Virus record (IMG/VR): IMGVR_UViG_3300047550_006186
Strand: one strand, 5' to 3'
DNA: 64,000 nt
Source of the DNA: a virus
Below the pieces are notes generated by a model. The model saw only the letters and a list, made by a program, of their open reading frames with translations, had not been told where the DNA came from and ran no database searches. The position numbers and the translations under genes are program-made. Below, one piece after another: positions 16,655-39,710 of this stretch (within the stretch, counting starts at the first letter, position 1; each line of letters opens with the position of its first letter).

Positions 16655-16675
16655 ACCTGCTCATAGCAGGTTCAC
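16633..16675. terminator. Bidirectional rho-independent terminator between convergent genes
   Basis: gtgaacctgct-cata-agcaggttcac then ttttctgtt; A-run on the other side. Confidence 0.6.
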
Positions 16676-16682
16676 TTTTCTG

Positions 16683-21510: not shown

Positions 21511-21587
21511 CAGCAACTGATCTTATATATAGGCATATGCAACAGGGATAGACCCTACCGCAGCCCAACAAGCAAAGGATTTTTGCT

Positions 21588-22652
21588 ATGAACAAAGAAT
21601 ACGATTTTCTGGTCTTCATTGGGCGGATGCAGCCACCCACTGTGGCACACTGCTCCATTATCGAGCAAGCTCTCCTAAAATCAAACAAAGTGATAGTGGT
21701 GCTGGGAAGCTGCAATAGTGCTCGCACCCTTCGCAACCCTTTCACATATGATGAGCGAGTTCTCATGCTGCGACGGTGCATGACCAACTCACAAAACGAA
21801 CAGATTATCACAGTGCCCATGGACGACTACACCTACAACGATGAAATGTGGGTGGTCAAGTTGCATGAGACTGTGAACCGTGCAATTTTGGAAAACATTC
21901 CTGGCAATTCACAATATTGCTATAACAACGGTATGATCAACCAGCGTGTGGGCCTGATTGGCCACGCCAAGGACAACACCAGCTACTACCTCAACCTGTT
22001 TCCTGAATGGGGCAGCGAGAACGTGCGCAATATTCCAGGAGTTGATGCCACCAGCCTGCGTGATGCATTTTTTGCACAAGGCATGCAGAGTGTGAACGAC
22101 ACGCTGGTGCGGCCTGGTGTGCGTGAATTTCTGGAGGATTTCATCCAGACCCTTGCTTACATCAACCTGCGCGAAGAGCGTGAATTTGTGGCCAAGTACA
22201 AGAAAGCCTGGGAAGCTGCGCCCTACCCGCCCACGTTCGTCACGGTTGATGCTGTGGTGGTGCAGAGCGGCCACGTGCTGTTGGTCAAGCGGGGAGCCAA
22301 TCCTGGCAAGGGGATGTGGGCCATGCCTGGTGGGTTCCTGGATCCCCTGGAGACCCTGGAACAGGGTGCCATGCGAGAGCTGCGGGAAGAGACCAAGCTC
22401 AAGGTGCCCGAACCTGTGCTGCGTGGCAGCATTGTGGCGCGGGAAACATATGATCATCCGCACCGCAGCAGCCGTGGCCGCACCATCACCACAGCATTTT
22501 TGATCCACCTCAAGCCTGCTGCCAAGTTGCCCAAGGTCAAGGGCAGTGATGATGCAGCAGAGGCTGATTGGGTCAGAATTGCTGACCTGGACCCGCACAC
22601 CTTGTTTGAAGACCACTACCATGTGATCATGAATTTGGTACGCAGGATCTAA
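21588..22652 (+). CDS. natV: Bifunctional NMN adenylyltransferase / Nudix ADP-ribose pyrophosphatase (NatV/NadM-Nudix)
   Basis: N-terminal nucleotidyltransferase (VFIGRMQPPTVAHCSII) + Nudix box GGFLDPLETLEQGAMRELREETKL. Confidence 0.8.
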   Translation: MNKEYDFLVFIGRMQPPTVAHCSIIEQALLKSNKVIVVLGSCNSARTLRNPFTYDERVLMLRRCMTNSQNEQIITVPMDDYTYNDEMWVVKLHETVNRAILENIPGNSQYCYNNGMINQRVGLIGHAKDNTSYYLNLFPEWGSENVRNIPGVDATSLRDAFFAQGMQSVNDTLVRPGVREFLEDFIQTLAYINLREEREFVAKYKKAWEAAPYPPTFVTVDAVVVQSGHVLLVKRGANPGKGMWAMPGGFLDPLETLEQGAMRELREETKLKVPEPVLRGSIVARETYDHPHRSSRGRTITTAFLIHLKPAAKLPKVKGSDDAAEADWVRIADLDPHTLFEDHYHVIMNLVRRI

Positions 22653-22790
22653 AAAATATCCCCTGTGCTGGGGATAAAAAACCACTTTACAAGCAATTTT
22701 TTTGGTGTTATTGTGGTAACATAAAGCACATGGACTAACAGCCTAGGATAGACCAGGGCTGAAACAACAACTGCAAAGGAGTTTTGCACC

Positions 22791-24206
22791 GTGGATAATG
22801 CTAACATTCTACTAACTGCCATGTCACTCAGGGCAGACAGTTACAAGTATTCTCACCATAATCAGTTACCTCCTGGTACAACCACCATCAACAGTTACAT
22901 TGAAAGCCGCGGTGGCAAGTTTGCCAACAGTGTGTTTTTTGGCCTGCAGGCCTGGATCAAGAGCTACCTGCTGCGACCGCTCACCAAGGCAGACATTGAT
23001 CTCACAGAAGAGATTGTGCTGGCTCATGGCGAGCCCTTCAACCGCGAAGGTTTTGATCGCATCATCAACGTGCATGGTGGCCATTGGCCAGTTGTGATCG
23101 AAGCTGTGCCTGAGGGCACTGTTCTGCCAGTTCGCAATGTGCTGGTGCAGATCCGCAACACGGATCCCACGATGCCCTGGGTAACCAGTTTCCTGGAAAC
23201 TGCTCTGCTGCGTGGTATTTGGTATCCCACCACAGTGGCCAGTCTCAGCTGGCATTGCAAGCAGATGATCCTGGATGCTTTGCGCAAGAGCAGCGAGGAT
23301 GCTCTAGGTCAGATCAACTTCAAGCTGCATGATTTTGGTGCACGAGGAGTCAGCAGCGGTGAAAGTGCTGCCCTGGGTGGCATGGCCCACCTGGTGAATT
23401 TCATGGGCACAGACACTGTGGAAGCTCTGGTGGCTGCCCGCATGCTGTATGGCGCTCAGATGGCAGGGTTTAGTATTCCTGCTATGGAACACAGTACTGT
23501 TACCAGCTGGGGTAGAGAGAACGAGGCATCAGCCTATGAAAACATGGTACGCAATTATGCTCGTCCAGGCAGTTTGGTGGCATGTGTGAGTGACAGCTAT
23601 GACATCTGGAACGCTGTCAGTAATATTTGGGGTGGAAATCTCAAGAGTCTGGTAGAAAACAGTGGTGCTACAATTGTTATTCGTCCCGACAGTGGTGACC
23701 CTCTCACTGTGCCTGTTCGTGTAGTTGAGAAGCTGGGTGAAAAGTTTGGCTTTACTATCAACAACAAGGGGTTTAAGGTTCTACCCAATTGTGTAAGGGT
23801 GATCCAGGGAGACGGTATTACAATTGACAGCATTCCAGTCATTCTCAAGAATCTACTGGATGCAGGATGGAGTGCTGATAACCTTGCCATGGGTATGGGT
23901 GGTGGACTTCTGCAAATGGTCAATCGAGACACAATGAAGTGGGCTATGAAGGCCAATGCCATGGAAATCAATGGAACTTGGAAGGATGTGTTCAAGGATC
24001 CAATTGATGACCCGGGAAAGACTAGCAAGAAGGGGGTGCTCAGTCTGGTCCGAAGCAATGGTATTGGCAGCAGCACATGGATTACCAAGCGGCGTGATGA
24101 GATGGCTATGGGTGAACAGGATCTTCTTGTGCCAGTGTTCAAAAATGGTGAGCTGCTGGTAGACGTAACCTTTGATCAGGTACGTGCCAACAGTCACCGA
24201 GGGTGA
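22791..24206 (+). CDS. nadV: Nicotinamide phosphoribosyltransferase (NAMPT/NadV)
   Basis: GTG start after AAGGAG SD; DSYKYSH motif and NAPRTase-family length (471 aa). Confidence 0.85.
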   Translation: MDNANILLTAMSLRADSYKYSHHNQLPPGTTTINSYIESRGGKFANSVFFGLQAWIKSYLLRPLTKADIDLTEEIVLAHGEPFNREGFDRIINVHGGHWPVVIEAVPEGTVLPVRNVLVQIRNTDPTMPWVTSFLETALLRGIWYPTTVASLSWHCKQMILDALRKSSEDALGQINFKLHDFGARGVSSGESAALGGMAHLVNFMGTDTVEALVAARMLYGAQMAGFSIPAMEHSTVTSWGRENEASAYENMVRNYARPGSLVACVSDSYDIWNAVSNIWGGNLKSLVENSGATIVIRPDSGDPLTVPVRVVEKLGEKFGFTINNKGFKVLPNCVRVIQGDGITIDSIPVILKNLLDAGWSADNLAMGMGGGLLQMVNRDTMKWAMKANAMEINGTWKDVFKDPIDDPGKTSKKGVLSLVRSNGIGSSTWITKRRDEMAMGEQDLLVPVFKNGELLVDVTFDQVRANSHRG

Positions 24207-24218
24207 TTTTTGATCAGG

Positions 24219-24250
24219 TCAAACCGCAGTCTACTGTAGACTGCGGTTTT
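24219..24250 (+). terminator. Rho-independent terminator after nadV
   Basis: aaccgcagtcta-ctg-tagactgcggtt then ttctgtg. Confidence 0.6.
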
Positions 24251-24395
24251 CTGTGACAATTATTGAGTGCATTAAACCTTTTCTTTTAGAATATCAAGTG
24301 TTTTTTGTTTGACACAAGCATGAGTTATATGCATTCTAAGAGTGCTACATTTGAGAGATAAATTATCTCTCAAATGTAGTTCGAAGGACATACTC

Positions 24396-24953
24396 ATGCA
24401 ATCACGATTTCAATCTTGGCACGAGCTAAGAGATTTAATTGCTCAGCGTAGTCTGATCAAAAATCAGAATTTCAAGCTCAGTAGTGGTTTAGATAGCAAT
24501 TATTTCTTTAACATGAAAATGACCATGTTAAATCCACAAGGTATTAATTGGATCACTGATGCTATCTTGGATATATTAGAAGGTTTACAATTCTCAAGCG
24601 TGGGTGGCATGGCAGTAGGTAGTGTGCCAATCACATCTAGTATTACTACCAAAAGTTTGTTTCGAGACAAATATTATCCATCTTTTTTTGTTAGAAAAGA
24701 AATTAAAGATCATGGGTTTCAAACCAAGATTGATGGTTACTGTGATCCAAATACAAAAGTGGTATTGATAGAAGATGTCACCACAACTGGTAAAAGCATT
24801 CTTCATGCAGTCAACGCTGTTGAACAAATTGGATGCACAGTTGATACGGTGATCACAGTTGTAGACAGGTTGGAAGGGGCAAGCTTAAATCTTTCCTCTA
24901 GAGGTATTAATTTGATTCCATTGTATATAAAAACAGATTTTGAACATGCATGA
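24396..24953 (+). CDS. Type I phosphoribosyltransferase (orotate PRTase-like)
   Basis: OPRT-like FKLSSGLDSNYFFN and PRPP-binding VVLIEDVTTTGKSI; AAGGA SD. Confidence 0.6.
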   Translation: MQSRFQSWHELRDLIAQRSLIKNQNFKLSSGLDSNYFFNMKMTMLNPQGINWITDAILDILEGLQFSSVGGMAVGSVPITSSITTKSLFRDKYYPSFFVRKEIKDHGFQTKIDGYCDPNTKVVLIEDVTTTGKSILHAVNAVEQIGCTVDTVITVVDRLEGASLNLSSRGINLIPLYIKTDFEHA

Positions 24954-25003
24954 TTATTTTGATCATTATGCATGATCTACATAGATTATGATTAATCGGG
25001 CAG

Positions 25004-25581
25004 GTGAACTACCACGCCCTAAAGGTCTGTGGCTTCCTGCTTAATCGTAGTGGCTGACATCTCACCCCAATGAGTGAGAATATCTGTCATCACATCCACA
25101 GGCGCTTGGGGCAGTTCCTGCCCTGCATGATCTATTGTCCATTGTTGATGTCCCCAGTTGCGGATGTTCACTGCTGCATTCGTGTCCCTGTGCTGAGTGA
25201 TTCCACATTCATCGCAATGATATTCTCTTTGCTTGAGATCCATGTGACTTTTGCGGGTGCCACATGCACTACAGGTCTTGCTACTGGGTAGCCACTGATT
25301 GATCTTGACAAGATAGTGGCCTTGCATTTGGCATTTGTAGGCCAATGCACCAATCAACATAGCCCAACTGGCATCAGCTATGCACTTGGCTGCGGGCTTG
25401 CTTTTTCTTTTCATCTCATCAATTTTCAGTGTTTCAACTGACACCAGGTCATGTGATTTGGCTATTCTCGCACTTGTCTGATCCTATAGCGATATCGCTG
25501 TTTTATAAATCTATTTGTATAATCTATTCAAAAAGCCGCTATCCATCCAGGGGCTAAAGCACCCTGGCTTTCCGCGGCGGG
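25004..25581 (-). mobile_element. Internally deleted (about 580 bp) copy of IS200/IS605-family element A
   Basis: RE (gtgaactaccacgccctaaagg...), 3' 430 bp of tnpB and LE (ccgctatccatccagg...ttccgcggcggg) with junction tctgat|cctatagcgatatcgctg. Confidence 0.6.
25019..25444 (-). pseudogene. tnpB: TnpB C-terminal fragment (141 aa)
   Basis: About 90% identical to C-terminus of TnpB copies at 39727 and 50182 (zinc-finger CSACGTRKSH...CDECG). Confidence 0.6.
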
Positions 25582-25595
25582 AGATAAGTAATTGT

Positions 25596-26114
25596 ATGAC
25601 CACACTGAAAGAGTTGACTTGGGAGAGTCATCAAAAAGCTGAGCAAACTGAGATCATGCAACAGTTGTTGAGCAACCAAATTACCAACAGGATGTATTGC
25701 AATTTGGTGTATACAAAATATCTTGTGTTTGCACAATTGGAAAACAGGATAGATTTTGTTACACCATGCTTGCATAGAGCACAAGCTGCCTTGAATGATT
25801 GGCAACAAATGCAATGCAGTTTGCCCAAATGTGTTCCCAGCTTGGAAACATATTTGGAATTGTTGCGAAAATTGGACAGTCATTTTGTATGGGCACATGT
25901 GTACGTGCATTATCTAGCCCCTTTGTATGGAGGACAGATCATCAAAAAGGTTATTCAACACAGATTTCCCACCAGCATGTATGAGTTTGATGACCCTATG
26001 AATGCAATAGCAGAAGTAAGATCAAAGGTGAATTTGGAGATGGCTGAGCAAGCCAATCTGGCATTTGATTATACTACAACATTTTTAAATGAACTTTATC
26101 TTGAGGAAAACTGA
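25596..26114 (+). CDS. ho1: Heme oxygenase
   Basis: LKELTWESHQKAEQTEIMQQL (proximal His helix) and HVYVHYLAPLYGGQIIKKVIQ ([21 protein letters not shown] in HO-1). Confidence 0.75.
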   Translation: MTTLKELTWESHQKAEQTEIMQQLLSNQITNRMYCNLVYTKYLVFAQLENRIDFVTPCLHRAQAALNDWQQMQCSLPKCVPSLETYLELLRKLDSHFVWAHVYVHYLAPLYGGQIIKKVIQHRFPTSMYEFDDPMNAIAEVRSKVNLEMAEQANLAFDYTTTFLNELYLEEN

Positions 26115-26743
26115 TGACTAATTTTATCCAGCTTGTAGACAAAACTGGTCACGCCTTTGAGCAAGTGATCCGCCAACACACCACCTATTTGCAATGCATT
26201 CCCACAGAGGATTTTGGTTGGACAAACTATAGATGGAGCAGCAGACAGTTTAGATTGGCACATGTGGAAAAATTCCAACAACCCAAGTTCAGTGTGTTGC
26301 ACATGGTGATATTTCCGCACGTTTACGATCCCAATCCTATTTTTGGATTTGATATTATTGCCAGCGACACAAAAGCCACAGGTGTATTTTTTGATCTTAG
26401 TCCCACTGTGGGACCAAGCTGCCAATTGTCTACTCAAACATGGCAAGATCCTAGAAATCGACCAGAATGGGGAGATATTTTCAGTGATTATTGGATAGCA
26501 TGTAGACCCTCCTTGGATGAAGCCCAACAAATCTGTAATTTGGCTGTGGACACATTACACCAATATCTGATTGATCTGAGTACAACTGCCAGCAGTTCCA
26601 AGATCAGAGATATAATTCAAGCACAAAATAGATACAGTCTACAACAGCGCAAAAATGAACACACTACCCGTGTGATCCTAAAACTTTTGGGAGAACAAAA
26701 AGGCCAACATTTTATTGAAAACATCCTGTTTCCCACCATTTGA
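26114..26743 (+). CDS. Ferredoxin-dependent bilin reductase (PebS/PcyA/PcyX family)
   Basis: FDBR family segment KFSVLHMVIFPHVYDPNPIFGFDIIASDTKATGVFFDLSP; ATGA overlap with ho1. Confidence 0.7.
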   Translation: MTNFIQLVDKTGHAFEQVIRQHTTYLQCIPTEDFGWTNYRWSSRQFRLAHVEKFQQPKFSVLHMVIFPHVYDPNPIFGFDIIASDTKATGVFFDLSPTVGPSCQLSTQTWQDPRNRPEWGDIFSDYWIACRPSLDEAQQICNLAVDTLHQYLIDLSTTASSSKIRDIIQAQNRYSLQQRKNEHTTRVILKLLGEQKGQHFIENILFPTI

Positions 26744-26986
26744 CACACTTGTCAACTATTGGCACAGGGCGGGGCTGGGATTTGGATACAGATGACCTTT
26801 TGTCTATTTGTGAGAGGTATTGGTGACATGCATTGCACATGCCCCATTCTTCCCCAGGGAACATATTAAAATTCCTGAGATGCAACAAGTGTGGGACAGC
26901 AGTTAAATGTTGCTGCCAGAAATCTGGCCTACTGCAGAGTGACATAATGCTTGTAATATGACAAAAACAGTTTATATTAGCCCTAC

Positions 26987-28411
26987 ATGCACGGAGTACC
27001 AGAAATGAAAAATGTCAACAAAACACATACTAAATCAGTGGACAGGGACGTTGCAAAGATCTACTTGCAGGAAGTGAGTCAAAACAAACTGCTCACTCAT
27101 GCACAAGAAATTGAACTCAGTCAGCAAATTGAAAATGCCAAACAGAATTTGATAGGTGTATTGTTTGCTATTCCCATGTGTGTGAAATATTTTAATCAAC
27201 AGATCATGTTGATTCTCAATGGCACAAGTGATGATTGTGTGGCATTTGATTGGGAAACAGTCAACAGTCAAAGCTTGATGCAAGAGATCACACATTTACA
27301 TGACATAATTGAATTGTATATGCAAAACAATTGTGTGGATTTGAATGCCAGGTTGCAAATTGGTGAAAAAATCAGCCAACTGCCTCTCAAGCTGGCATTT
27401 TTTGATATTGCCAGCAAGCCATTGCTGGACAAAGGCAGCAAATTGAGCCAAGTGCAGGGAGAATTCATGCGATTTGCTGCCAAACATAATATTAGCCGAC
27501 AGGTGTTTTTGGACAATCATTTGGAGCGTGTGCCTTGTTCCACATGGCAATCTTTTGTTGCCACACATGAATGTGTGGTGAAAAACTATCAACAACAAAT
27601 TACAGCCATTTGTGAACCCACTGGTTTGACTGTCAGTGAATTGACCACTGCGCTGGAAAAAATCAGGCAGTGGCAGAAAATCAAAGACAATAGTGTGGAA
27701 ACCATGCTCAAAAGCAACCTACGTTTGGTGGTAAGTGTGGCCAAAAAATATATCAGTGTGAGCAACACTCCCATGTTGGATCTTGTGCAAGAAGGCAATA
27801 TGGGACTGCTCAAGGCTATTGAAAAATACAATTGGAGACTGGGTTATAGATTCAGCACATATGCAACTTGGTGGATCAAGCAATGTGTACTCAAAGCCCT
27901 AAATGAACAACATCGTATCATTCGTGTGCCCAGTCACATGACACAACTGGTCAAAAGAGTGGGCAGAGCACAGGAAGAATTTTTAGCTTCGCATGGTTAT
28001 GAAGCTGGTATAGACGATCTAGCACAAATATTGGAAGTGGACTGTGAACAAATCCGCAAAGTATACACAGTTGCCCAGGGCACCATCAGCTTGGAAACAC
28101 CTATTGGTCAGGAAGAAGATCAGAACCTAGGCAGTGTGTTGGAAGATGTGGATCATGTTAACGCTTTTGACCTATTGGCACATGTGGATGCTCAAGAAAA
28201 CATGAGCAAAATATTGGCTCTACTCACTCCCAAAGAAGAGCGTGTGATTCGCATGCGATTTGGTATTGGCCTGGATAAAGAAAGCACTTTGGAAGACATC
28301 GGCACTGTGATGGGTGTCACACGAGAACGTATTAGGCAAATTGAACTCAAAGCTTTGCAAAAGCTCAAAAGCCCTGAATTTGCCGATAAAATTCAACAGG
28401 CCTGGCAGTGA
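26987..28411 (+). CDS. Sigma-70 family (group 1/2-like) RNA polymerase sigma factor
   Basis: Region 1.2 (AKIYLQEVSQNKLLTHAQEIEL), region 2 (NLRLVVSVAKKYISVSNTPMLDLVQEGNMGLLKAIEKYNWRLGYRFSTYATWWIKQ), region 3 (IRVPSHMTQLVKRV), region 4.2 (LEDIGTVMGVTRERIRQIELKALQKL); likely start ATG 27005 after GGAG. Confidence 0.85.
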   Translation: MHGVPEMKNVNKTHTKSVDRDVAKIYLQEVSQNKLLTHAQEIELSQQIENAKQNLIGVLFAIPMCVKYFNQQIMLILNGTSDDCVAFDWETVNSQSLMQEITHLHDIIELYMQNNCVDLNARLQIGEKISQLPLKLAFFDIASKPLLDKGSKLSQVQGEFMRFAAKHNISRQVFLDNHLERVPCSTWQSFVATHECVVKNYQQQITAICEPTGLTVSELTTALEKIRQWQKIKDNSVETMLKSNLRLVVSVAKKYISVSNTPMLDLVQEGNMGLLKAIEKYNWRLGYRFSTYATWWIKQCVLKALNEQHRIIRVPSHMTQLVKRVGRAQEEFLASHGYEAGIDDLAQILEVDCEQIRKVYTVAQGTISLETPIGQEEDQNLGSVLEDVDHVNAFDLLAHVDAQENMSKILALLTPKEERVIRMRFGIGLDKESTLEDIGTVMGVTRERIRQIELKALQKLKSPEFADKIQQAWQ

Positions 28412-28418
28412 ACCACTG

Positions 28419-28441
28419 TGGGCCCCTTGGGCCCACAGCCT
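28419..28441 (+). terminator. Hairpin after sigma-factor gene (no U-tract)
   Basis: ctgtgggcc-cctt-ggcccacag. Confidence 0.3.
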
Positions 28442-28496
28442 CATGTTCCAACTGTTAATTTTGACAGTGTGCAATATTATATTGCACACTCTTCAC

Positions 28497-28742
28497 ATGC
28501 GTAAACGTATTATGGGGTCTACCTCTGCTCAAGCCAAAAAACCTGCCAATAAAACTCTAGTGTATTGTACTCTCAATGATAGCAAATGCAAGGGACTGAT
28601 TGTTCTCAAAACTGAATATCAGCTCACAGTACAAATGCCCACTGGGTGTGTTTTGCACATGGTTCGCCCACAAGGACGCAAACTGTATGTGTGTTATGCA
28701 GGTCAACTGGAATTTGTCAGTGATGGATGGGCTACAACCTAG
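28497..28742 (+). CDS. Hypothetical small basic protein (81 aa)
   Basis: ATG in frame of ORF 28314..28742; preceded by perfect palindrome gtgcaatat-tat-atattgcac (28468-28488). Confidence 0.35.
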   Translation: MRKRIMGSTSAQAKKPANKTLVYCTLNDSKCKGLIVLKTEYQLTVQMPTGCVLHMVRPQGRKLYVCYAGQLEFVSDGWATT

Positions 28743-28783
28743 TGAACTACCACACCCTAATGGTGTGGTAGTTCACTCAGTGT
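28741..28783. repeat. GTGAACTACCAC palindromic repeat (15-bp perfect hairpin)
   Basis: gtgaactaccacacc-ctaat-ggtgtggtagttcac; family shared with IS element A right end. Confidence 0.6.
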
Positions 28784-28877
28784 TTGATTGCTTTAACCCA
28801 ACCGCCGCAGGATGGCAAGCCGAACAACTAAATAATGGCATGATAGCCACCTTTATAGTTGATTCGCACTGTTTGTC

Positions 28878-29285
28878 ATGACACAACAGTTGATAGAAAA
28901 CACCACAGGATATTACAGCATAGATGCAAGTATGAAATATGTACTGCCTTTTGAATGTGTATTGGGTGAGAAACTTGTGTTTACCGCAGCTCATAGTAAT
29001 TTTTTCAAAAATCAAAATTGGAGTATGCGGTTTTGGATAAGCAAGATCAAAGATGGTGTGAGTATCACTCAAGAGCCTCAGGCCAATTTGGCTTATGTGA
29101 ATCCTCTCAAATTACCAGTGAATTTTGGTGTTTATGATGTGACTTGGTATACTCAACCCACGCGCGATCAGGAAGTATGGCTGGCACCAGTAGCGCCAGC
29201 CATTACGTATTACCTCAACATTCAGAATTTGGAAAATAGACCCAATGGATTTTACCTAGTTTGGTCTAGTATACCCATTGATTGA
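28878..29285 (+). CDS. Hypothetical protein (135 aa)
   Basis: ORF track. Confidence 0.45.
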   Translation: MTQQLIENTTGYYSIDASMKYVLPFECVLGEKLVFTAAHSNFFKNQNWSMRFWISKIKDGVSITQEPQANLAYVNPLKLPVNFGVYDVTWYTQPTRDQEVWLAPVAPAITYYLNIQNLENRPNGFYLVWSSIPID

Positions 29286-29295
29286 ATGTACGGTC

Positions 29296-30030
29296 TCAGC
29301 TGTTAATTTTGTGGGGGTCCACTCCCAATTTGGCCAATACTTCAATAGCAGTATTCATATCTTCCAAGCTGGGCAACTGTGTGCGTGGATGGGATTTTTT
29401 AAGTCCAGTCTCCAGTTGCTTGAGAGCTCTAGTCAACGCTCCTCTGCGTGCACTTTCGCTATCCACAGGGCTGGTTGGTTTGTATGCTTCTGCCATTTTG
29501 TGTGGCCATTTGCTGGGATCACTCCAATTGATATCATCTGACTTTTTGGGTTGGACCAGACTGAGCACGAGTTTTTTGTCATCATCATTCAAGGGTTCTG
29601 CAAATGTTCCACCCAGGTGTACCAACTTGTCTGCCAGTGCGCTCAGCTTGTTGGCAGTTGCATCATGTGTGATACTGGGCAATCGGACAAATATCTTTTG
29701 GCCCAATTTCACCAATTGAGCAGTTGTATAAGGAAAATCCACGTTTTCTTGAACAGGTTCATGAGTGCCTTCGTTGAGTGTGGCACTGACCACATCATAC
29801 TCTAGATTGCTGGCCACGCATTCTAGATATTCAGCTGCTAGTGTGATTTTGGCTTGCATCCAACTTTCTAAATTGTCTACCATTTTGAGCAATTTGTGAA
29901 TTTCCATGGCATTTTTGGCTGCTTTGTAGCATTGCGCCTGTGACATTGATATTTCGTGGTCATCATGGATGATCACTTTGGGTTCAACTTGTACGTCTGT
30001 TACTTGCATTTGTGGATTCATGACATCCAT
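29296..30030 (-). CDS. Hypothetical protein (244 aa)
   Basis: ORF track; GGAGA SD on minus strand. Confidence 0.5.
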   Translation of the reverse strand: MDVMNPQMQVTDVQVEPKVIIHDDHEISMSQAQCYKAAKNAMEIHKLLKMVDNLESWMQAKITLAAEYLECVASNLEYDVVSATLNEGTHEPVQENVDFPYTTAQLVKLGQKIFVRLPSITHDATANKLSALADKLVHLGGTFAEPLNDDDKKLVLSLVQPKKSDDINWSDPSKWPHKMAEAYKPTSPVDSESARRGALTRALKQLETGLKKSHPRTQLPSLEDMNTAIEVLAKLGVDPHKINS

Positions 30031-30078
30031 GGTTGTCTCCGGAGAATTTGTAGGTTTTGTGAAGTTATTTATTTATTT

Positions 30079-30379
30079 CTGCGAGCGGAAGACCACTGGC
30101 TTGTCAAGCCAGTGGATGGATAGCGAGTGGATAAATTATTTTTGATATATTGCATTTCTTTCAATTTCACAGCATAAATAAGCTGTCACTTTAACAAGTG
30201 GACTAGGGCAGGAAGTGCCCAGTACGCCTGTGGAGTCCGATCAGACCTGTGGGGCTGGTGGTTGTGCTAGGACGCACATAAAACCCCAGAAATGGGGCAC
30301 GCGATAACCAAGCACACAAACCCCACGGGCAAGGACTACGACGCAGGAAGCTACAGTCCTTTAGGGCGTAGTACTTCAC
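30079..30379 (+). mobile_element. About 300-bp MITE related to IS element A (diverged LE + shared interior + RE)
   Basis: gcgagcggaagaccactgg...gccagtggatggatagcgag (LE-like), interior ggactagggcaggaagtgcc, RE cgcaggaagctacagtcctttagggcgtagtacttcac. Confidence 0.45.
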
Positions 30380-30438
30380 ATCGCTCAATTGACTGTGTTC
30401 GATTCACAGCAGACCCACCATTTTTTCATAAGTAGCTG

Positions 30439-31044
30439 ATGAACATTTGTGCATTGGCATTGGTGTTACTGCTGGATGTAAGCAGCAGTGTGACTCCCGA
30501 ACGTTATGCTTTACAAAAACAGGGGTTGTTGACAAGCTTTCAAGATCCCAGCATACAAAGATTGATGCTCAGTCAAAATCCTGGAGGCATGGCTGTGACA
30601 GTTTTTGAATGGAGCACAGGAGCACAACAGGTAATCCCCTGGCATCACATTCAAACTCCAACTGATGTGGAGAAATTTGTTGAGCAGATCAACAATTTAG
30701 ATAGAGCCCAAGTTGATGGAGTCACAGCCATAGGCGTGGCACTGGAAGCAGGTATTGCCAGCTTGGAACAAGCACCATGTGTGCCTGAAAGAAAAATACT
30801 GGATGTGAGTGGAGATGGTGCCAACAACAGCGGCATTGATCCATCGCACTTGCGAGACCAGGCCCAAACTCAAGGCATAACGATAAATGGTTTGCCAATT
30901 TTGAATCCAAATGAACCTGACCTTGAAATTCATTATAGGAAACAGGTTGTCACCATGGATGGTTTTGTGATAGCCAGCGAAGGGTTTGAAGATTTTGCTA
31001 GAGCATTGCGACGCAAACTCATACTGGAAATAGCTGGGCAATAA
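30439..31044 (+). CDS. DUF1194 / vWA-like domain protein
   Basis: LALVLLLDVSSSV (MIDAS-like DxSxS) and DVSGDGANNSG. Confidence 0.55.
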   Translation: MNICALALVLLLDVSSSVTPERYALQKQGLLTSFQDPSIQRLMLSQNPGGMAVTVFEWSTGAQQVIPWHHIQTPTDVEKFVEQINNLDRAQVDGVTAIGVALEAGIASLEQAPCVPERKILDVSGDGANNSGIDPSHLRDQAQTQGITINGLPILNPNEPDLEIHYRKQVVTMDGFVIASEGFEDFARALRRKLILEIAGQ

Positions 31045-31201
31045 ATAAGCAAATGGCAATGACTTTTGCACAAGTTAAAGAAAACAAACTGGTCAGACGT
31101 TTGACACTGATTGGGTCAGTGTGTGGAGCCCTCATGGCAATCTACAACTTTGGCGATGTATGGGACAAACTGGGTCTTCCCAGACCAATTTTTGTTCAAG
31201 A

Positions 31202-31644
31202 GTATTACATATTTTCATTCATTTCGCAAGTGTTTGTATGCAATTATTAAAAACCAATAAAAGATACATATGATTACCTATTTGGCTGATTCCTTGAATT
31301 CAAGGAAATCAATTTAGACTACTTGATTCAGTTATAAATCATTGGGGTAGACGAAATCAATTCTGGCGAGTGGGCTTGGCCCAGCAACGGATAGAACATG
31401 CATGCGAAGAAAACGGCGTCCGGTTAACTCGCGTACATGCAGCATACACATCGCAAACTTGCAGTGCATGCGGGGTCAAACACAAGCAATCGCGCCAAGG
31501 CGAACGATTCTCGTGTTTGAGTTGTGGATATGAAGTAGATGCCGACTTGAATGGCGCTATCAATATCCGCAACAGAGGAGCATATAGTCCCTCTGTTAAA
31601 AAAATATAAGATCATTTATAGAAATATATGATCTCAATAACTAT
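31202..31644 (+). mobile_element. Internally deleted copy of IS200/IS605-family element B
   Basis: LE (gtattacatattttcattcatttcgcaag...) and RE (...aacagagggactatatgctcctctgtt...ctcaataactat) identical to element at 48641-50029 in inverse orientation; retains only last 79 codons of tnpB. Confidence 0.6.
31370..31609 (+). pseudogene. tnpB: TnpB C-terminal fragment (79 aa)
   Basis: 77/79 identical to C-terminus of ORF 48676..49794. Confidence 0.6.
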
Positions 31645-31711
31645 ATACTTTTAAAGATTTAGTCTTTGAAATGTGTGAAGTGGGAATGCAAAGATTGATT
31701 GGAGATAAAAA

Positions 31712-32941
31712 ATGAGCAAGCTCTTATTAGAAATGGGTGATCACTATGTAAGTGATTTCATTAAGAATGATAGTGAAGGTGAAGGTCGCAAGAAATATAG
31801 TCTAGACTTGTACCAAGACGAAAAATATGGCGCAGTGCGTCTTCATTGTATCGCACCAGCAGATACTATGTGGGGACAGTATTGGTATCGCAGTGGTATC
31901 AATGAAAGCATGATAAAAGAATTGCAAGGCATTGTTGCAGAAGTAACATCAAGAGTTAAGACTAAAGATGGTGATATCTGGCTTGACATTGCATGTAACG
32001 ACGGCACACTATTAAAGAACGTTCCAGACAACATGATCAAGCTTGGTATTGATCCGTGTGATGACAGCTATCATGTAGAGAGTTCTAAAGTTGCAAATAA
32101 GGTTGTTCAGGACTATTTCAGCTATGATGCATGGATTAAAACTGGTTACGGTGATGCTAAAGCTAAAATCATTACTTGCATTGCGATGTTCTACGACTTA
32201 GATGATCCAGTTCCATTCGTACAAGACTTGTATAAAGTCCTTGATGACAATGGTACACTAGTTTTACAAATGAGCTATACACCATTGATGGTGAAGCAGC
32301 TTGCGTTTGACAATATCTGCCATGAACACGTTTTCTATTACGACTTGAAGAGTATAACTAGACTCTTTGCTGAGAATGGATTTATAGTTGTTGACTGTAG
32401 CCTTAACGATACCAACGGCGGAAGCTTTAGAGTGTATCTCCAAAAGGATGTTGCAGAAGTTTCTAGCTTTGCTACAGCACCTTTGCGTGACGTATGCAAT
32501 TTCAGAGTGAACAGTATTCTAGCATATGAAAGAATGGAGAACGATATCTCTGATCCAGAGACATGGAAACACTTTGGCGAAAGACTTGCTGCACTGAAGA
32601 CTCAAGTTGTTTCGTTTGTACATCAAGCCGTCAAAGAAGGCAAAACGGTCTATGGGTATGGCGCAAGCACTAAGGGCAATACATTGCTCCAGTACTTTGG
32701 CCTAGATCACAACTACATTACTGCTATTGCAGAACGTAGCCCATATAAATTCGGCATGAAGACTATTGGCACTAACATTCCAATTATCAGTGAAGAAGTA
32801 ATGCGCCTGGCAAAGCCAGACTACATGCTAGTATTGCCTTGGCACTTCATTGACGAATTCGAAAAGCGTGAACAAGAATACTTGAAGGGCGGCGGTACAT
32901 TCATTGTTCCTTGTCCTGAATTTAAATTGATCGTAGGTTAA
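31712..32941 (+). CDS. SAM-dependent C-methyltransferase (NDP-hexose C-methyltransferase-like)
   Basis: SAM motif LDIACNDGTLL plus C-methyltransferase C-terminal domain (HEHVFYY, LPWHF); low-GC island. Confidence 0.6.
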   Translation: MSKLLLEMGDHYVSDFIKNDSEGEGRKKYSLDLYQDEKYGAVRLHCIAPADTMWGQYWYRSGINESMIKELQGIVAEVTSRVKTKDGDIWLDIACNDGTLLKNVPDNMIKLGIDPCDDSYHVESSKVANKVVQDYFSYDAWIKTGYGDAKAKIITCIAMFYDLDDPVPFVQDLYKVLDDNGTLVLQMSYTPLMVKQLAFDNICHEHVFYYDLKSITRLFAENGFIVVDCSLNDTNGGSFRVYLQKDVAEVSSFATAPLRDVCNFRVNSILAYERMENDISDPETWKHFGERLAALKTQVVSFVHQAVKEGKTVYGYGASTKGNTLLQYFGLDHNYITAIAERSPYKFGMKTIGTNIPIISEEVMRLAKPDYMLVLPWHFIDEFEKREQEYLKGGGTFIVPCPEFKLIVG

Positions 32942-32942
32942 C

Positions 32943-33581
32943 ATGTATAACGTTATCACTTCTGTAGGAAGACTACAGAATATTTCACTGATCAAGAATC
33001 ACATTCAGCCTCAGAATATTCTTTGGCATGTGATTACTGATGAAGACATTGGATTTAGTTTAAAATTCGCTGAGCCATGGATAACAAGTTACGTATGTCC
33101 AAACGATCATGTAGAATTTTGGGCTAGATGCCATGGGGCATTGAATTGGTTTATTGAAACTCAAGAAATCAATGATGATGAAATGTATTGCTTTCTGAAT
33201 GACGATGATGGCTATGAGTCAGAATTCTTTAAAAAAGTGGATGCTGCTATTTTAGAAGTAAAGGCGAATTACAACGTGGATCCTGATGTGATTATCGTCA
33301 GTATGCAAAGAGGTGACACAACACCAAGCGATGCAGGTGCAGAAAGACAACATGGAACGGATACTTTATTTGCACATCCTGATAATATGAGACCTGGTCG
33401 TGTTGGACTTGAGCAACTTATAATTCGTGGTAAGTTATTGAAAAAATATAGACTTGCTATGGATATTAATGGTGATGGTATATTCATCAGTCAAGTTACA
33501 CAAGACAATCCTTTTACATGTGCACCAAACATCAATGTGCTATTTAATTACTTTGAGCCAGGACGTTGGAATAAGAAATGA
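32943..33581 (+). CDS. Hypothetical protein, possibly nucleotide-sugar transferase-like
   Basis: DDD-containing segment CFLNDDDGYESEF; same low-GC operon; weak. Confidence 0.35.
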   Translation: MYNVITSVGRLQNISLIKNHIQPQNILWHVITDEDIGFSLKFAEPWITSYVCPNDHVEFWARCHGALNWFIETQEINDDEMYCFLNDDDGYESEFFKKVDAAILEVKANYNVDPDVIIVSMQRGDTTPSDAGAERQHGTDTLFAHPDNMRPGRVGLEQLIIRGKLLKKYRLAMDINGDGIFISQVTQDNPFTCAPNINVLFNYFEPGRWNKK

Positions 33582-34516
33582 AAAAGGTTGCGCTAGTTAG
33601 TGGACCAGTTCAGAATTGTGGCATATACTATTGGGGAACCAATGTGTATGCTATCCTCAAGAACAGCAAAAAATATTCATTCCATTTTATAACCGCATTT
33701 AGCCATTCCGAATTCTTAGAGAAGACTGAGAGTATGGACGTTATCATCTATAATTGGCATTCTAGTACTATGCCTTGGTGTACGTCAGAAATATTTACGG
33801 CAACATCAAAGCCACAATTCCTAATTCATGGACACACAGCAAATTCGGAACTGATTAATTTTGATGGCATTGACGAATTCATTACAGTAGCCCCAACACC
33901 AAATTACGGCACAAAAAACTTTCATTCTGGCCATAGACCCATAACATATTATGACGATATAGTGTATAATGAACCCAAGGGTGTAATAAAAATAGGCACT
34001 AGTGGCATAGGTCATAATGGTAAAAACATAGAGACAATGATGAACCTCATCAACAGTCAATTTGATGAACCCGTTATATTTAATGTTCACTGGAGTGTTG
34101 GCGCCTTTACTGGTTCTAATCGTGATACTCTAGAATCAAAACTGAAGCGTCTACATGCATTAGCAAAGCCAAATGTTACTTTAAATTTTACTCTAGAGCA
34201 GCTATCTGAATACGATAACATAAAGTGGCTAAACTCTAATGACATTAATTTGTATATCTACCCAAGCTATGACTGCGATGGTGTAAGTGCTAGTATAGAT
34301 AAAGCATTAGCAGCTAAGAAGCCTATTGGAGTAAACGACAGTAACTTCTTTAAGCACATCATCTCTGATGAAATTAATATAGGAAAGACACCAATAAAAT
34401 CTATAATTAGCAATGGCATAACTCCACTAATGAAATATTATGATATGTGGAATCCTAAAACATTCTTGGAACAATACGAAGGTATATTGGATGAATTTTA
34501 TAAGAAGACACTATAA
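33578..34516 (+). CDS. Hypothetical protein (312 aa) in sugar-modification-like cluster
   Basis: ATGA overlap with upstream gene; low GC. Confidence 0.4.
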   Translation: MKKVALVSGPVQNCGIYYWGTNVYAILKNSKKYSFHFITAFSHSEFLEKTESMDVIIYNWHSSTMPWCTSEIFTATSKPQFLIHGHTANSELINFDGIDEFITVAPTPNYGTKNFHSGHRPITYYDDIVYNEPKGVIKIGTSGIGHNGKNIETMMNLINSQFDEPVIFNVHWSVGAFTGSNRDTLESKLKRLHALAKPNVTLNFTLEQLSEYDNIKWLNSNDINLYIYPSYDCDGVSASIDKALAAKKPIGVNDSNFFKHIISDEINIGKTPIKSIISNGITPLMKYYDMWNPKTFLEQYEGILDEFYKKTL

Positions 34517-35177
34517 CAATTGGCCAGGCACTTGTTGTTACTCTTTCAATAAGAGCAATGTAATTAACGAAACTTTCAGTCAAGCATATCAAGACATATT
34601 TGTGCTTTCTGTATTAGATGGTAAGACTGACGGCAGATATCTAGAGATTGGCTGCAATGTTCCAGACTACACCAACAACACATATTTACTATCAAAAGAA
34701 TATAACTGGACAGGGGTTAGTGTTGACTGTATACAATCTCTGATTGATTCATGGTCAGTACAAAGAAGCAAAGATATCTTCAAAGTATGCGACGCACTTA
34801 CAGTAGATTTTGGCCAAATGATGGCTGAGAATTATGATGGTAGAAAAGTTTTAGACTATCTACAGTGCGACATTGAACCACCAGATAATACTCTGAGAGT
34901 TCTTAAGAGACTTCCTCATGATGAATACCGATTCAAAGTCATCACATTAGAAACGGATGCTTATACTGGTGCAGATGGTATGAGAGTTAGAAGAGAGAGT
35001 AGAGATTTTCTATCCAATCTAGGATACGAAATAATTGTCGGTGACGTATTAGTCGATGGCTGCAATCCATTTGAGGACTGGTGGGTAGCACCAGAACTAG
35101 TCAACATGGAAGTTGCGAACAATATCAAAGCACAAGCTTTAATCACACAGCATCCAGCACAGTTACTTTTCAAGTGA
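34491..35177 (+). CDS. FkbM-family-like methyltransferase
   Basis: QDIFVLSVLDGKTDGRYLEIGCNVP resembles FkbM N-terminal SAM-binding segment. Confidence 0.45.
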   Translation: MNFIRRHYNNWPGTCCYSFNKSNVINETFSQAYQDIFVLSVLDGKTDGRYLEIGCNVPDYTNNTYLLSKEYNWTGVSVDCIQSLIDSWSVQRSKDIFKVCDALTVDFGQMMAENYDGRKVLDYLQCDIEPPDNTLRVLKRLPHDEYRFKVITLETDAYTGADGMRVRRESRDFLSNLGYEIIVGDVLVDGCNPFEDWWVAPELVNMEVANNIKAQALITQHPAQLLFK

Positions 35178-35190
35178 ATTACACTAGGTG

Positions 35191-35232
35191 TACTACTGTT
35201 GGTCTAAAGACCAACAGTAGTACACCGAAAAA
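35191..35232. repeat. Perfect 19-bp-stem palindrome (variant of GTGAACTAC repeat family)
   Basis: ggtgtactactgttggtct-aa-agaccaacagtagtacacc. Confidence 0.55.
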
Positions 35233-35377
35233 TAAACTAGCTCAACAGATGGGTGGATTTCCAACTTATAATAAAATAAGTGATGGATAATTTATTAATC
35301 AATTTGTTGCAACATACCATTCTGCAACCATTGTTAATATAAACAAAATCTTATACGTTCACAATTAAAGTAACTTT

Positions 35378-36694: not shown

Positions 36695-36707
36695 TATTGC
36701 TACTTAT

Positions 36708-37310: not shown

Positions 37311-37359
37311 ACTTGTATTTATAACTTTTTTGCGCTATAAATGCAAATAACAATATAAT

Positions 37360-38286: not shown

Positions 38287-38400
38287 TTTGCCCAGGTGGT
38301 GAAATTGATAACCACCCTGCTTGCGTCTGTAGGCCCACTAGTAGAGTCAGTGGTTTGAGGGGCCATCCAGTGGAGGTTCAAATCCTCTCGGATGCACCAA

Positions 38401-39204: not shown

Positions 39205-39331
39205 GGATCTTCCTTGAGGGTTGACTTGAGTGAACTACCACGCCCTAAAAGGATATGTCTTCAACAAAAAGTCTACCATAAATATTTAGGAGATACACTC
39301 CCACATCAATGTTATCAATAGGTTAGCGCAA

Positions 39332-39706: not shown

Positions 39707-39710
39707 GTGA

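Follow-up and report, generated by a model that had tools for sequence, protein, structure and literature searches.

The solitary perfect hairpins found at gene ends in a 64,000-nt viral sequence (IMG/VR record IMGVR_UViG_3300047550_006186; hereafter the window), which looks like a large phage genome, are composed of two outer halves of the right end (RE) of a tnpB-only IS200/IS605 element. Each half comprises the 3' arm of the RE hairpin and TAGTTCAC, and the two halves are inverted and joined at or near the hairpin loop. We put at about one in two the probability that these palindromes are stable relics of recombination between, or collapse of, inverted REs, and that they act incidentally as 3'-end RNA hairpins.

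The terminal 12 nt of this RE, whose terminus reads GGGCGTGGTAGTTCAC, have the 12-mer GTGAACTACCAC as their reverse complement. At one mismatch or fewer on both strands, the 64-kb window contains 12 matches (nine exact, three with one mismatch), against 0.28 on average, and never more than 2, in dinucleotide-preserving shuffles. Thus, the family of palindromes that a sequence-only reading had placed at gene boundaries is real, its positions being off by a few bases only, and its derivation from the right-end hairpin region of an IS is borne out by the identity of the 12-mer. Exact copies occur at 25004, 28741/28742, 39230, 39712, 44721 and 50167, and at 9947–9958 on the minus strand, the latter within the palindrome at 9922–9958 (reported at 9928), whose plus-strand arm, GTGAACTACTGT, has three mismatches. 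The remaining reported positions correspond to 15813–15824 (reported at 15815; one mismatch), 41599–41610 on the minus strand (41585; one mismatch), 30368–30379 on the minus strand (30355; two mismatches) and 62208–62219 (62206; three mismatches). The hairpin reported at 35191 carries the variant GTGTACTACTGT, with four mismatches to the 12-mer, and is placed in the family because it has its stem in common with 62208. The twelfth match, GTGAACTAGCAC at 41699–41710 (plus strand; one mismatch), is within an OMP beta-barrel-like ORF and is probably a chance match outside the family. Besides the four palindromes, the family includes three full IS copies, one of which is truncated by the end of the window, a further copy with an internal deletion, two 3' remnants in a degraded state, two palindrome-associated elements of the PATE type and a half-fragment of the RE.

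The parent element is of the IS1341 type. One full copy occupies 39712–41001 on the minus strand, with tnpB at 39727–40920 (397 aa), the RE at 39712–39749 and the left end (LE) at 40947–41001. A second copy at 50167–51456 (minus strand; tnpB at 50182–51375) is about 90% identical to it, and a third, at 63009–64000 on the plus strand with its LE at 63009, runs past the window end, so that its RE is outside. TnpB matches the Pfam models OrfB_IS605, Cas12f1-like_TNB and HTH_OrfB_IS605 (E value about 1e-21) and the NCBIfam model IS200_TnpB (1e-89). Membership in the IS200/IS605 family is indicated by a TnpB/OrfB gene with RuvC-like and zinc-ribbon domains and by ends that have no terminal inverted repeats and form imperfect subterminal hairpins on one strand; the apparent terminal inverted repeat at 41571–41611 is the RE of a separate, inverted neighbouring PATE. 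The RE is laid out as CAGGAAG-CCACAGCCC-TTTA-GGGCGTGG-TAGTTCAC, in which a subterminal hairpin is followed by an 8-nt linker and then by the cleavage motif, while the LE hairpin reads CCAGGCGCC-TTTAG-GCCCTGG. Both hairpins are on the tnpB strand and have a CTTTAG loop in common. In the same-strand subterminal hairpins with a CTTTAG-type loop, the absence of terminal inverted repeats, and a TnpB with HTH, OrfB_IS605 and zinc-ribbon regions, the element resembles IS608 and ISDra2 as well as tnpB-only IS1341-type elements with omega-RNA. The flank preceding the LE ends in TTA(C/T) in seven instances, and AAAG stands 5' of the hairpin foot, as in IS608. Like those of other IS200/IS605 elements, the RE ends in a transposon-encoded motif, here TTCAC, following the TAM/TEM logic described for the family (PMC10055086). 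A relative with 73% identity, present in other phage-like contigs, has the same RE and TTAC immediately before its LE. The exact TnpB proteins had no match in the contig index, and the sole strain-specific RE junction (window position 24635 versus strain L315) is at TCAC, not TTAC. In contrast to IS608 and ISDra2, the elements reside in a phage-like genome and no Y1 (HUH) TnpA was detected among the approximately 85 window ORFs scanned, nor did a Y1 transposase adjoin related tnpB copies; the elements would thus be non-autonomous, or kept by TnpB homing.

This element and its derivatives, from full copies to PATEs and fragments, are dense in the window. The internally deleted copy at 25004–25590 (minus strand) retains the RE, a C-terminal TnpB fragment (25019–25444) and the LE. 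A degraded 3' end at 15808–15990 (minus strand) retains the 3' remnant of tnpB and an RE whose hairpin is mutated, and a remnant of a second RE variant at 62208–62265 (minus strand), ending in CAGCCAGCTGTTGGTGTTTAGACCAACAGTAGTTCAC, is tail-out relative to the IS that starts at 63009. At 39230–39262 (minus strand) an RE outer half, TTTTAGGGCGTGGTAGTTCAC, stands alone, broken off at the hairpin loop. PATEs are gene-less non-autonomous IS200/IS605 derivatives (PMC3119063, PMC7290912, PMC10055086). Two bona fide examples, with LE and RE and no protein gene, are present on the plus strand: 41295–41611 (LE 41295–41349, RE 41571–41611), which stands head-to-head with the IS at 39712–41001, REs outward, and has a counterpart of 91% identity in another viral contig (L084); and about 30075–30382, in which a variant LE hairpin, CCACTGGCTTG/CAAGCCAGTGG, follows TTTA and the RE is at 30340–30382. 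The inverted motif copies noticed at 30355 and 41585 are therefore present, but as the REs of genuine PATEs. The PATE-type label fits these two elements and does not extend to 28741, 35187, 44721 and 9922, because these have no LE sequence; the perfect hairpins, moreover, measure just 31–40 bp and are symmetric.

The first of the perfect palindromes, at 28741–28777, reads AGTGAACTACCACACC-CTAAT-GGTGTGGTAGTTCACT, with 16-nt arms (28741–28756 and 28762–28777). The second, at 44721–44751, reads GTGAACTACCACGC-AGA-GCGTGGTAGTTCAC, with 14-nt arms (44721–44734 and 44738–44751) and an eroded apex (loop AGA). The third, at 35187–35226, derives from the second RE variant and reads GGTGTACTACTGTTGGTC-TAAA-GACCAACAGTAGTACACC, with 19-nt arms (35187–35205 and 35208–35226) and a complementary A/T change in both feet. 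The arms are 100% complementary in each case, and since the three all differ from one another they were not copied from each other. The fourth, at 9922–9958, is an imperfect hybrid, in which the left arm, GTGAACTACTGTTGG, corresponds to the outer half of RE variant 2 and the right arm, TTTAGGGCGTGGTAGTTCAC, to that of variant 1. All 26 genuine REs collected carry CAGGAAG in the 5' flank, and the 5' arm is bulged or mismatched in 21/21 of RE variant 1 (the natural hairpin has a bulged A). In the same place the palindromes carry the complement of the 3' arm and linker, and the perfect hairpins have no bulge. The proposed origin from the IS right-end hairpin hence needs modification: the hairpins are derived from the RE, but they are two inverted outer halves and not the RE hairpin itself. 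Unlike IS200/IS605 ends, they end no element, having two RE tips and no LE. Solo copies without tnpB or LE, both palindromic and half-RE, do exist, so that the family is not merely a set of full IS ends. Many unrelated perfect palindromes at gene ends are also present in the window.

Two routes to such joints can be envisaged. Two inverted, tail-out REs may recombine inside their quasi-palindromic hairpins, or a head-to-head IS/PATE pair, itself a long unstable inverted repeat, may collapse from its centre. In either case everything between both RE tips would be lost, leaving a palindrome of 31–40 bp with a former IS/flank junction on both sides, short enough to be stable and thus able to outlive the IS copies. 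Long DNA palindromes are known in bacterial genetics for instability and central deletion, and quasi-palindromes for template switching. In this way, head-to-head IS pairs could give rise to short, stable palindromes whose centres vary or are eroded, as the sequence anatomy of these IS605 ends suggests. An origin from two parents is argued for by 9922–9958, which joins the outer halves of variants 2 and 1, and by the lone outer half at 39230–39262, broken at the loop. Precursor-like tail-out pairs are present in the window (39712 minus/41611 plus and 62208 minus/63009 plus) and in contigs L039 and L084. The eroded centre of 44721, the stem matches to cognate REs, the restriction to REs, the motif-less flanks and the strain junction at 28741, the last four described below, further support such joints. 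Elsewhere, there are hairpins shorter still, which have no loop at all. The model nevertheless needs two nearby inverted insertions per palindrome, which is demanding given how common the hairpin class is. Two simpler histories were rejected. Insertion of an IS into a pre-existing palindrome is contradicted by LE flanks without a palindrome half, and a single-IS excision footprint by the lack of GTGAACTA in the IS for the left foot and of TTAC in the flanks.

A palindrome could also arise from a single RE, if a nascent strand copying the RE tip folded at the hairpin and copied its own 5' part, so that an imperfect hairpin and its flank became a perfect extended palindrome in place (quasi-palindrome perfection). 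This would account for perfect, bulge-less arms from a bulged parent, for the specificity for REs, and for a palindrome in locus L015 that lies 48 nt from a live RE with the same stem. The complementary changes in the feet of 35187 are also better explained by templated copying or arm-to-arm conversion, and no RE variant matching this double change was seen. Such fold-back cannot, however, yield the two-variant hybrid at 9922–9958; it requires a nascent 5' end or a switch back exactly at the RE boundary without re-annealing homology; and the rest of the IS should adjoin the palindrome, which is not the case at 28741 or 44721. We regard it as quite improbable.

Hairpins that have these feet in common are widespread in phages, bacteria and archaea; their stems are variable but covary, and the loop is often CTTTAG. 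The class is real: at least four extra perfect pairs beyond the imposed feet were found in 53–54% of the distinct matches listed, versus 0.6% in shuffles. In loci L015, L033 and L039, the stems match the cognate RE of the same locus. Palindrome formation is RE-specific, as no LE-type palindromes were found in viral contigs and no inner-type palindromes in 1.9 Mb of loci. In 57% of the matches listed, the arms cease to be complementary, on either side, exactly at the position of RE cleavage. The flanks of approximately 129 hairpins, among the matches listed, contain no TTAC-type, left cleavage or target motif, and neither direct repeats nor a flank consensus of the kind expected of a TIR-type MITE was found among them. 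The matches in Kiritimatiellae are the centre of a different element, a true TIR-MITE, and are the only matches so embedded. Palindromes of RE variant 2 were not found in IMG/VR, and a search of the phage GenBank collection gave no matches. Sequence-string and keyword searches of the literature retrieved no description of these palindromes.

A further parallel is the REP/REPIN family, whose short extragenic palindromes are akin to the end hairpins of IS200/IS605 elements (PMC3116915, PMC3733652, PMC8266576). Common to both are the formation of one hairpin by two inverted halves, a location downstream of ORFs, often between convergent genes, and GTAG beside the stem. The palindrome might itself be a non-autonomous unit of 31–45 nt, each strand having an RE-type hairpin followed by the TTCAC cleavage motif, which is moved by cut-and-paste or copied by a Y1 TnpA that a host or another element provides in trans. 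The architecture of two inverted halves in one hairpin is that of REPINs (PMC3116915, PMC3337134), the ending of complementarity at the cleavage position on both sides would be expected of such a unit, and units of identical sequence have different flanking DNA (L003/L005; the 38-mer GTGAACTACTCCGACTTATAGAAGTCGGAGTAGTTCAC occupies at least five contexts); among the matches listed, some other genomes contain several identical units. On the other hand, ACTA stands 5' of the hairpin foot in place of the genuine RE guide tetranucleotide GAAG, the cleavage motif is sequestered in a perfect duplex, and the motif-less flanks offer no conserved left cleavage or target site. The CTAC/GTAG of both arms pairs inside the foot, whereas the REP tag (GTAG or CGTC) is unpaired at one end. 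No Y1 transposase or cognate RAYT was detected among the window ORFs scanned, and the 64-kb window contains three to four units, all different, so that the copy number may be lower than that of REPINs. Tagged REPs are found mostly in proteobacteria, but members of the present class occur in archaea, Firmicutes and phages. Moreover, the hybrid at 9922–9958 and the half-RE at 39230 would be left unexplained. A mobile unit is therefore unlikely, in our estimation.

Comparison of strains bears on both the two-RE joint and the mobile unit. Two near-identical strains (L315 and L316) are 99.8% identical to the window upstream and diverge from it starting at position 28738, so that a strain-specific module junction lies no more than 5 nt from the 28741 palindrome. 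In a distant relative (L314) with the same gene order, the flanking genes are contiguous and the palindrome is absent, an arrangement which is equally compatible with simple insertion of a unit. A group of gut phages exhibits the same junction pattern, and an empty-site test there gave module replacement, not a clean empty site. The overlap of junctions with palindromes is confounded, however, because mosaic junctions in phages tend to be intergenic anyway. The right junction at 28741 had no match in a metagenome scan, no relatives of the sigma factor were found in IMG/VR, and among the loci compared there was neither a strain with an IS pair at a palindrome site nor a locus where a full RE and a palindrome have the same flank.

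All four palindromes are located less than 10 nt from a stop codon. The stop is in the foot at 9923–9925 (TGA of a DnaE-like ORF, 8126–9925), at 28740–28742 (TAG of the upstream plus-strand ORF, overlapped by the left foot) and at 44748–44750 (TGA of a 285-aa ORF on the minus strand, between convergent genes), while 35187 begins 9 nt past the stop of ORF 34440–35177. The claim of placement exactly between genes holds insofar as stops abut the palindromes; it fails for 35191, which is about 150 nt 3' of an IS607-type element with a TnpB-like ORF and hence not in a clean gene-to-gene spacer. RNA folding of the perfect hairpins gave -25 to -33 kcal/mol, and the z-scores versus shuffles ranged from -6 to -9. 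No T-tract follows any of these hairpins (tails TCAGTGTT, TCAGCTGC and CGAAAAAT), and a terminator scan of 26500–46400 called none of them, in agreement with the earlier remark on missing U-tracts; intrinsic (Rho-independent) terminators are thereby rejected. A known RNA family was likewise rejected, since Rfam at gathering thresholds returned four tRNAs only and nothing meaningful appeared around the RE at E values up to 10.

These properties have to be weighed against the proposal that the hairpins are selected elements, whether they stabilise mRNA 3' ends, attenuate or insulate between genes, or are bound or targeted by TnpA or by TnpB with its omega-RNA. Stem stability, proximity to stops, the compensatory change in the feet of 35187, the retention of the element at one site in a diverging gut-phage lineage, and the existence of such roles among REPs (PMC3733652) are all compatible with selection. 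The feet, however, contain TGA and TAG, so that insertion at the 3' end of a gene truncates the ORF at the foot automatically and adjacency to stops is partly trivial. The absence of T-tracts and the abundance of unrelated perfect palindromes at gene ends in this window weigh in the same direction. As for transposase or omega-RNA targets, nothing supports them: the flanks listed have no target motif, no guide-matching second site exists in the window, and the units lack the omega-RNA scaffold of roughly 100–150 nt. In the most speculative form of this proposal, the hairpin, TAGTTCAC and the flank would mimic an omega-RNA 3' module plus guide. Overall, selection for a function seems a very doubtful explanation. 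Under the two-RE joint, which we prefer, the palindromes would have no dedicated function; transcripts would form very stable stem-loops right at stop codons. Such stem-loops probably do not cause intrinsic termination but shield the 3' end of the upstream mRNA or modulate read-through, in the manner of REPs.

TnpB/IS605 elements are the ancestors of Cas12, and their genes are among the most abundant known. Their decay and leftovers are, to our knowledge, less well described. We suggest, tentatively and with considerable reserve, that RE–RE palindromes are an unrecognised class in prokaryotes and phages, generated systematically by IS605-family REs, either as footprints of module-swapping recombination, in which case TnpB elements would drive mosaicism, or as self-propagating REPIN-like units served in trans by Y1 transposases. 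On either reading, the conserved feet GTGAACTAC/GTAGTTCAC would provide a simple genomic marker of past IS605 activity. If the palindromes are two-RE joints, they would record past IS activity and would mark IS ends as places in phage genomes where deletion and module exchange are frequent. If they are mobile, the REPIN concept would no longer be confined to RAYT-bearing proteobacteria and would extend to archaea, Firmicutes and phages. In annotation, the class explains a recurrent hairpin overlapping stop codons that might otherwise be taken for a terminator or a regulatory RNA.

Both 397-aa minus-strand ORFs at 39727-40920 and 50182-51375 encode TnpB, with matches to Pfam HTH_OrfB_IS605, OrfB_IS605 and Cas12f1-like_TNB and to NCBIfam IS200_TnpB (E value 1e-89). 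Comparison of the window with itself gives an element of 1,290 bp, which is present in full at 39712-41001 and 50167-51456, as a third, plus-strand copy running from 63009 beyond the window end, as an internally deleted copy (25004-25590), and as a degraded 3' end (15808-15990). In every copy the aligned right end (RE) terminates in CAGGAAG-CCACAGCCC-TTTA-GGGCGTGG-TAGTTCAC. The left end (LE) starts 3' of TTA(C/T) and includes the hairpin CCAGGCGCC-TTTAG-GCCCTGG, which is on the same strand as the RE hairpin and has AAAG on its 5' side. IS608 uses the target TTAC and the guide AAAG, has its hairpins on one strand, and lacks terminal inverted repeats; we take the window element to have this layout. 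TnpB relatives at 73% identity, from other phage-like freshwater contigs that are also without tnpA, share the same RE (ending in GGGCGTGGTAGTTCAC) and an LE directly after TTAC. A Pfam profile search of ~85 window ORFs found no Y1 (HUH) transposase. The full copies are typical members of the IS200/IS605 family (IS1341 type). Two copies of the hairpin motif had been described as inverted; the matches are real, but they are the REs of two genuine PATEs, i.e., gene-less units with an LE and an RE. At 41571-41611 the IS seems to have an inverted repeat, but this stretch is the RE of another gene-less element, which is on the plus strand, measures 317 bp and has its own LE (41295-41611); an unrelated viral contig carries this element too, at 91% identity. 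The second unit is located at ~30075-30382. Both are ordinary PATEs.

Some sequence similarity extends past the REs. Three are followed by ATCAC/ATCGC and two by CTGCC (39707-39711, 15808-15812, 30383-30387, 24999-25003 and 62203-62207), with divergence beyond; RE variants which captured 5 nt via a downstream TCAC-like cleavage site may be the source of these common pentamers. The 16 nt past the RE of the IS at 50167 (TAGAGATCATATCTTA) resemble, with three mismatches, the terminal sequence TTGAGATCATATATTT of a third TnpB-type element, which stands after TAGTTA (50147-50166 compared with 48648-48663 and 31622-31637). This likeness may reflect chance or a nested insertion.

Every aligned copy stops at the same RE sequence, and the motif GTGAACTACCAC is therefore the terminal 12 nt of the RE in reverse complement. 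It is overrepresented, with nine exact and three one-mismatch matches on both strands of the window, i.e., 12 in all, against a mean of 0.28 and a maximum of 2 in dinucleotide-preserving shuffles. The one-mismatch match at 41699, inside an OMP-like ORF, is probably due to chance. When read in context, the coordinates of the sequence-only reading are correct within a few bases, and so is its derivation of the motif from the IS right end, although the anatomy is more specific than it proposed. Of the copies that it lists, those at 35191 and 62206 are more distant variants, as is the left arm at 9928; a second common stem, ACTGTTGGTC, ties all three to the family.

The perfect solo hairpins noted at 28741, 35191 and 44719 were confirmed as inverted repeats at 28741-28777 (16-nt arms), 35187-35226 (19-nt arms) and 44721-44751 (14-nt arms). 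The palindromes have RNA folding energies of -25 to -33 kcal/mol (z-scores -6 to -9), compared with about -16 kcal/mol for the natural hairpin of the transposon end. That the solo hairpins are the RE hairpin itself is ruled out by their different 5' side. CAGGAAG is found 5' of the hairpin in 26 of 26 genuine REs from the window and related loci, and all 21 REs of variant 1 have a bulged A or an equivalent mismatch in the 5' arm. The palindromes differ: their 5' side is exactly complementary to the 3' arm, linker and cleavage motif (GTGAACTA-CCACGC...GCGTGG-TAGTTCAC). Each palindrome thus consists of two inverted outer halves of the RE, each running from loop to terminus, that meet at or near the loop. 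Three observations agree with this description: a hybrid at 9922-9958, with its left arm GTGAACTACTGTTGG from RE variant 2 and its right arm TTTAGGGCGTGGTAGTTCAC from variant 1; a lone RE outer half at 39230-39262 with its breakpoint at the loop; and the eroded palindrome at 44721, which lacks the hairpin apex (loop AGA). The remnant at 62208 and the 35187 palindrome also contain the variant 2 outer half. Solo copies therefore do exist beyond full IS ends, as RE-RE palindromes and the lone half. The three perfect palindromes are each distinct from the others, and both feet (the outermost parts of the arms) of 35187 carry a complementary change.

The pattern GTGAACTAC-N6-30-GTAGTTCAC was used to scan IMG/VR and then one genome per GTDB species, yielding 74 loci and at least 120 matches, respectively. 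Those listed from GTDB include Nostoc, Anabaena, Scytonema, Calothrix, Lachnospiraceae and other Clostridia, as well as Methanolobus, Nitrosopumilus, Woesearchaeota, Borreliella plasmids, and others. We estimate that 596 Gb of sequence would give a few hundred chance matches to the feet alone, so the evidence for the class is in the interior of the matches. At least four extra perfect pairs beyond the imposed feet were present in 54% of 48 distinct viral sequences and in 53% of 106 distinct genomic sequences among the matches listed, versus 0.6% of shuffled interiors. The stems vary from case to case with complementarity kept, and many matches have the IS608-type CTTTAG/CTAAAG loop. tnpB is absent from most of the first ~100 (viral) loci checked; where the cognate IS is present (L015, L033 and L039), the palindrome stem is that of its RE, and in L015 the two are 48 nt apart. 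Kiritimatiellae matches were rejected as the same object. There the palindrome GTGAACTAC...GTAGTTCAC, bordered by ACGCTAAAGC/GCTTTAGCGT, is the centre of a multi-copy TIR-MITE of ~120 bp with ends CAGCAATTCTAATTATGGCCG (L105, L111, L140, L154, L179 and L183 in the Kiritimatiellae MAG JAQUCE01; also L123 and L180), a different element bearing the same feet. In L039 (2742-5232), ~2.3 kb of small phage ORFs is bracketed by two inverted, outward-pointing partial IS 3' ends, which each comprise an RE and ~130 nt of omega-RNA scaffold; a same-stem palindrome is midway (3952-3989).

Identical units were found in different flanks, which, together with sharp boundaries, would suit a REPIN-like unit mobilized in trans by a Y1 TnpA. 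We consider such a unit unlikely, since the guide tetranucleotide is lost (ACTA in place of GAAG), the cleavage motif is base-paired, there is no left-site motif, and the hybrid at 9922-9958 does not follow from it. Among ~129 good units no flank consensus was found, notably no TTAC, and in 57% of them complementarity ends exactly at the RE cleavage position. Palindrome formation appears to be specific to the RE: an equivalent scan of IMG/VR found no LE-type palindromes, and no inner-type palindromes (CAGGAAG...CTTCCTG) were found in 1.9 Mb of collected loci.

We give about even odds (roughly 0.5) to the palindromes being joints of two inverted REs, arising by recombination or centre-out deletion. 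The near-palindromy of the RE hairpin means that two REs in opposite orientations share ~20 bp of direct homology. A crossover within this homology, or deletion spreading from the centre of a head-to-head IS/PATE pair (which forms a long inverted repeat), would lose all sequence between the two RE tips and leave flank-GTGAACTA-hairpin-TAGTTCAC-flank. Such a joint would account for perfect arms without a bulge, edges at RE cleavage positions with no target motif, the RE-variant hybrid, the lone half-RE, the eroded centres, and the unlikeness of all window units. It would also account for the RE specificity: the reciprocal or tail-in joint would be a perfect palindrome on the kilobase scale, and would be unstable. 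Tail-out pairs that resemble such precursors occur at 39712(-)/41611(+) and 62208(-)/63009(+) in the window, and other loci have them too. Counting against a two-RE joint, no flank common to a full RE and a palindrome was found, nor any strain with an IS pair at a palindrome site, and the complementary change in both 35187 feet suggests templated copying or arm-to-arm conversion. Fold-back or template switching from a single RE is quite improbable, as it would be unable to produce the hybrid.

Strain-specific junctions are found at RE tips and RE-RE palindromes alike, an association confounded by intergenic bias, as mosaic junctions of phages are usually intergenic. Three contigs from other samples (L315, L316 and L317) share 99.8% identity with the window over at least 28300-28737, L315 matching at 99% from 24631. 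L317 stops short of 28738, where L315 and L316 turn to unrelated sequence, four bases before the palindrome foot; L315 continues with a convergent 117-aa gene absent from the window. A distant relative (sigma factor 83% identical) keeps the window gene order and has no palindrome in the non-alignable spacer at the 28741 site. The ENA contig L315 opens with an RE (GTAGTTCAC followed by ATCTAG) abutting window 24635, where the window has no IS and reads CCAATCAC followed by ATCTAG. This junction (window 24631-24640 versus L315 1-90) is inside a PRTase-like ORF (24342-24953), at a TCAC (RE-motif-like) site, not TTAC. In a gut-phage lineage, a palindrome is a few bases from the exchange point of alternative upstream modules.

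A stop codon is located within 10 nt of all four units and is overlapped by three of them. This adjacency is partly trivial because the feet contain TGA and TAG, so that insertion at a gene 3' end truncates the ORF at the foot. A selected RNA or DNA function, which is compatible with the other origins, seems doubtful. Since transcripts would form strong 3' stem-loops without U-tracts, the putative effect would be to shield the upstream mRNA in a REP-like way or to alter read-through; intrinsic termination is not expected. As previously noted, no T-tract follows any of the perfect hairpins; a terminator scan picked up none of the palindromes, and their identification as terminators or TIR-MITEs was rejected. 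A role as transposase or omega-RNA target sites gained no support, the flanks having no TAM-like motif and the window no guide-matching sites. The suggested kinship to REP/PATE-type elements holds for REP-like shape and location, but the defining tests of REP/REPIN fail: GTAG is paired, whereas unpaired GTAG is the defining feature, and no RAYT was found among the window ORFs scanned. Copies in the window are also few and heterogeneous. Lacking an LE, the palindromes are not PATEs either. The literature searched, the coverage of which was incomplete, yielded no account of RE-RE palindromes. Many further unique perfect palindromes with 14-17 nt arms and no relation to the IS end are present at gene boundaries (8077-8112, 16648-16678, 24221-24249, 24345-24379, 58478-58518 and 61519-61549); that at 16648-16678 (AAAGTGAACCTGCT/AGCAGGTTCACTTT) has A/T-tract flanks and is bidirectional-terminator-like.

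The window appears to be a section of a large phage genome, for which we infer a cyanobacterial host. It encodes holin- and spanin-like proteins, Phage_VG64, Clp protease, lytic transglycosylase, heme oxygenase, ferredoxin-dependent bilin reductase, NAMPT, a NadR-like enzyme, a sigma-70 factor, a DnaE fragment and four tRNAs. Auxiliary metabolic genes (2063-3052, 56094-57500 and 20752-26743), which also include arginase/agmatinase family, saccharopine-dehydrogenase-like and fatty-acid desaturase genes, suggest a large freshwater cyanophage-like virus. There was no match in the GenBank phage collection; part of the window is identical to a JGI metagenome contig. Guide-RNA nuclease elements crowd the region. 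A minus-strand IS607-type unit (35378-37310) comprises a serine transposase (36708-37310; NF033518, E value 1e-46) and, 3' of it, a divergent 438-aa TnpB-like ORF (35378-36694) with a weak TIGR01766 match and no zinc-finger segment by eye; the 35187 palindrome is ~150 nt 3' of this ORF. The third TnpB type (372 aa) is encoded on the minus strand at 48676-49794. Its end sequence (48641-48942) has a solo copy at 31337-31644 and is found in viral contigs L004 and L006 (96-98% identity), and the JGI contig terminates within this repeat. The DnaE-like ORF (8126-9925; 599 aa) has NTPase and finger domains only, with no PHP or C-terminal domains, and it stops at the TGA that the hybrid palindrome carries in its foot; mobile-element activity may have split or truncated the gene. 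Direct repeats of 40-70 nt upstream of small ORFs (TTGGTTGACA...TGCTATAAT...AAGCAAGGAATA...ATG; at 3324, 10547, 10830, 12809, 13297, 14161 and 14460) look like a reused strong sigma-70-type promoter and leader, as in phage early genes. Finally, unusually for a phage-like genome, an 843-aa ORF (58961-61492) combines the shoulder and repeat domains of major vault protein with an SPFH/Band 7 match.
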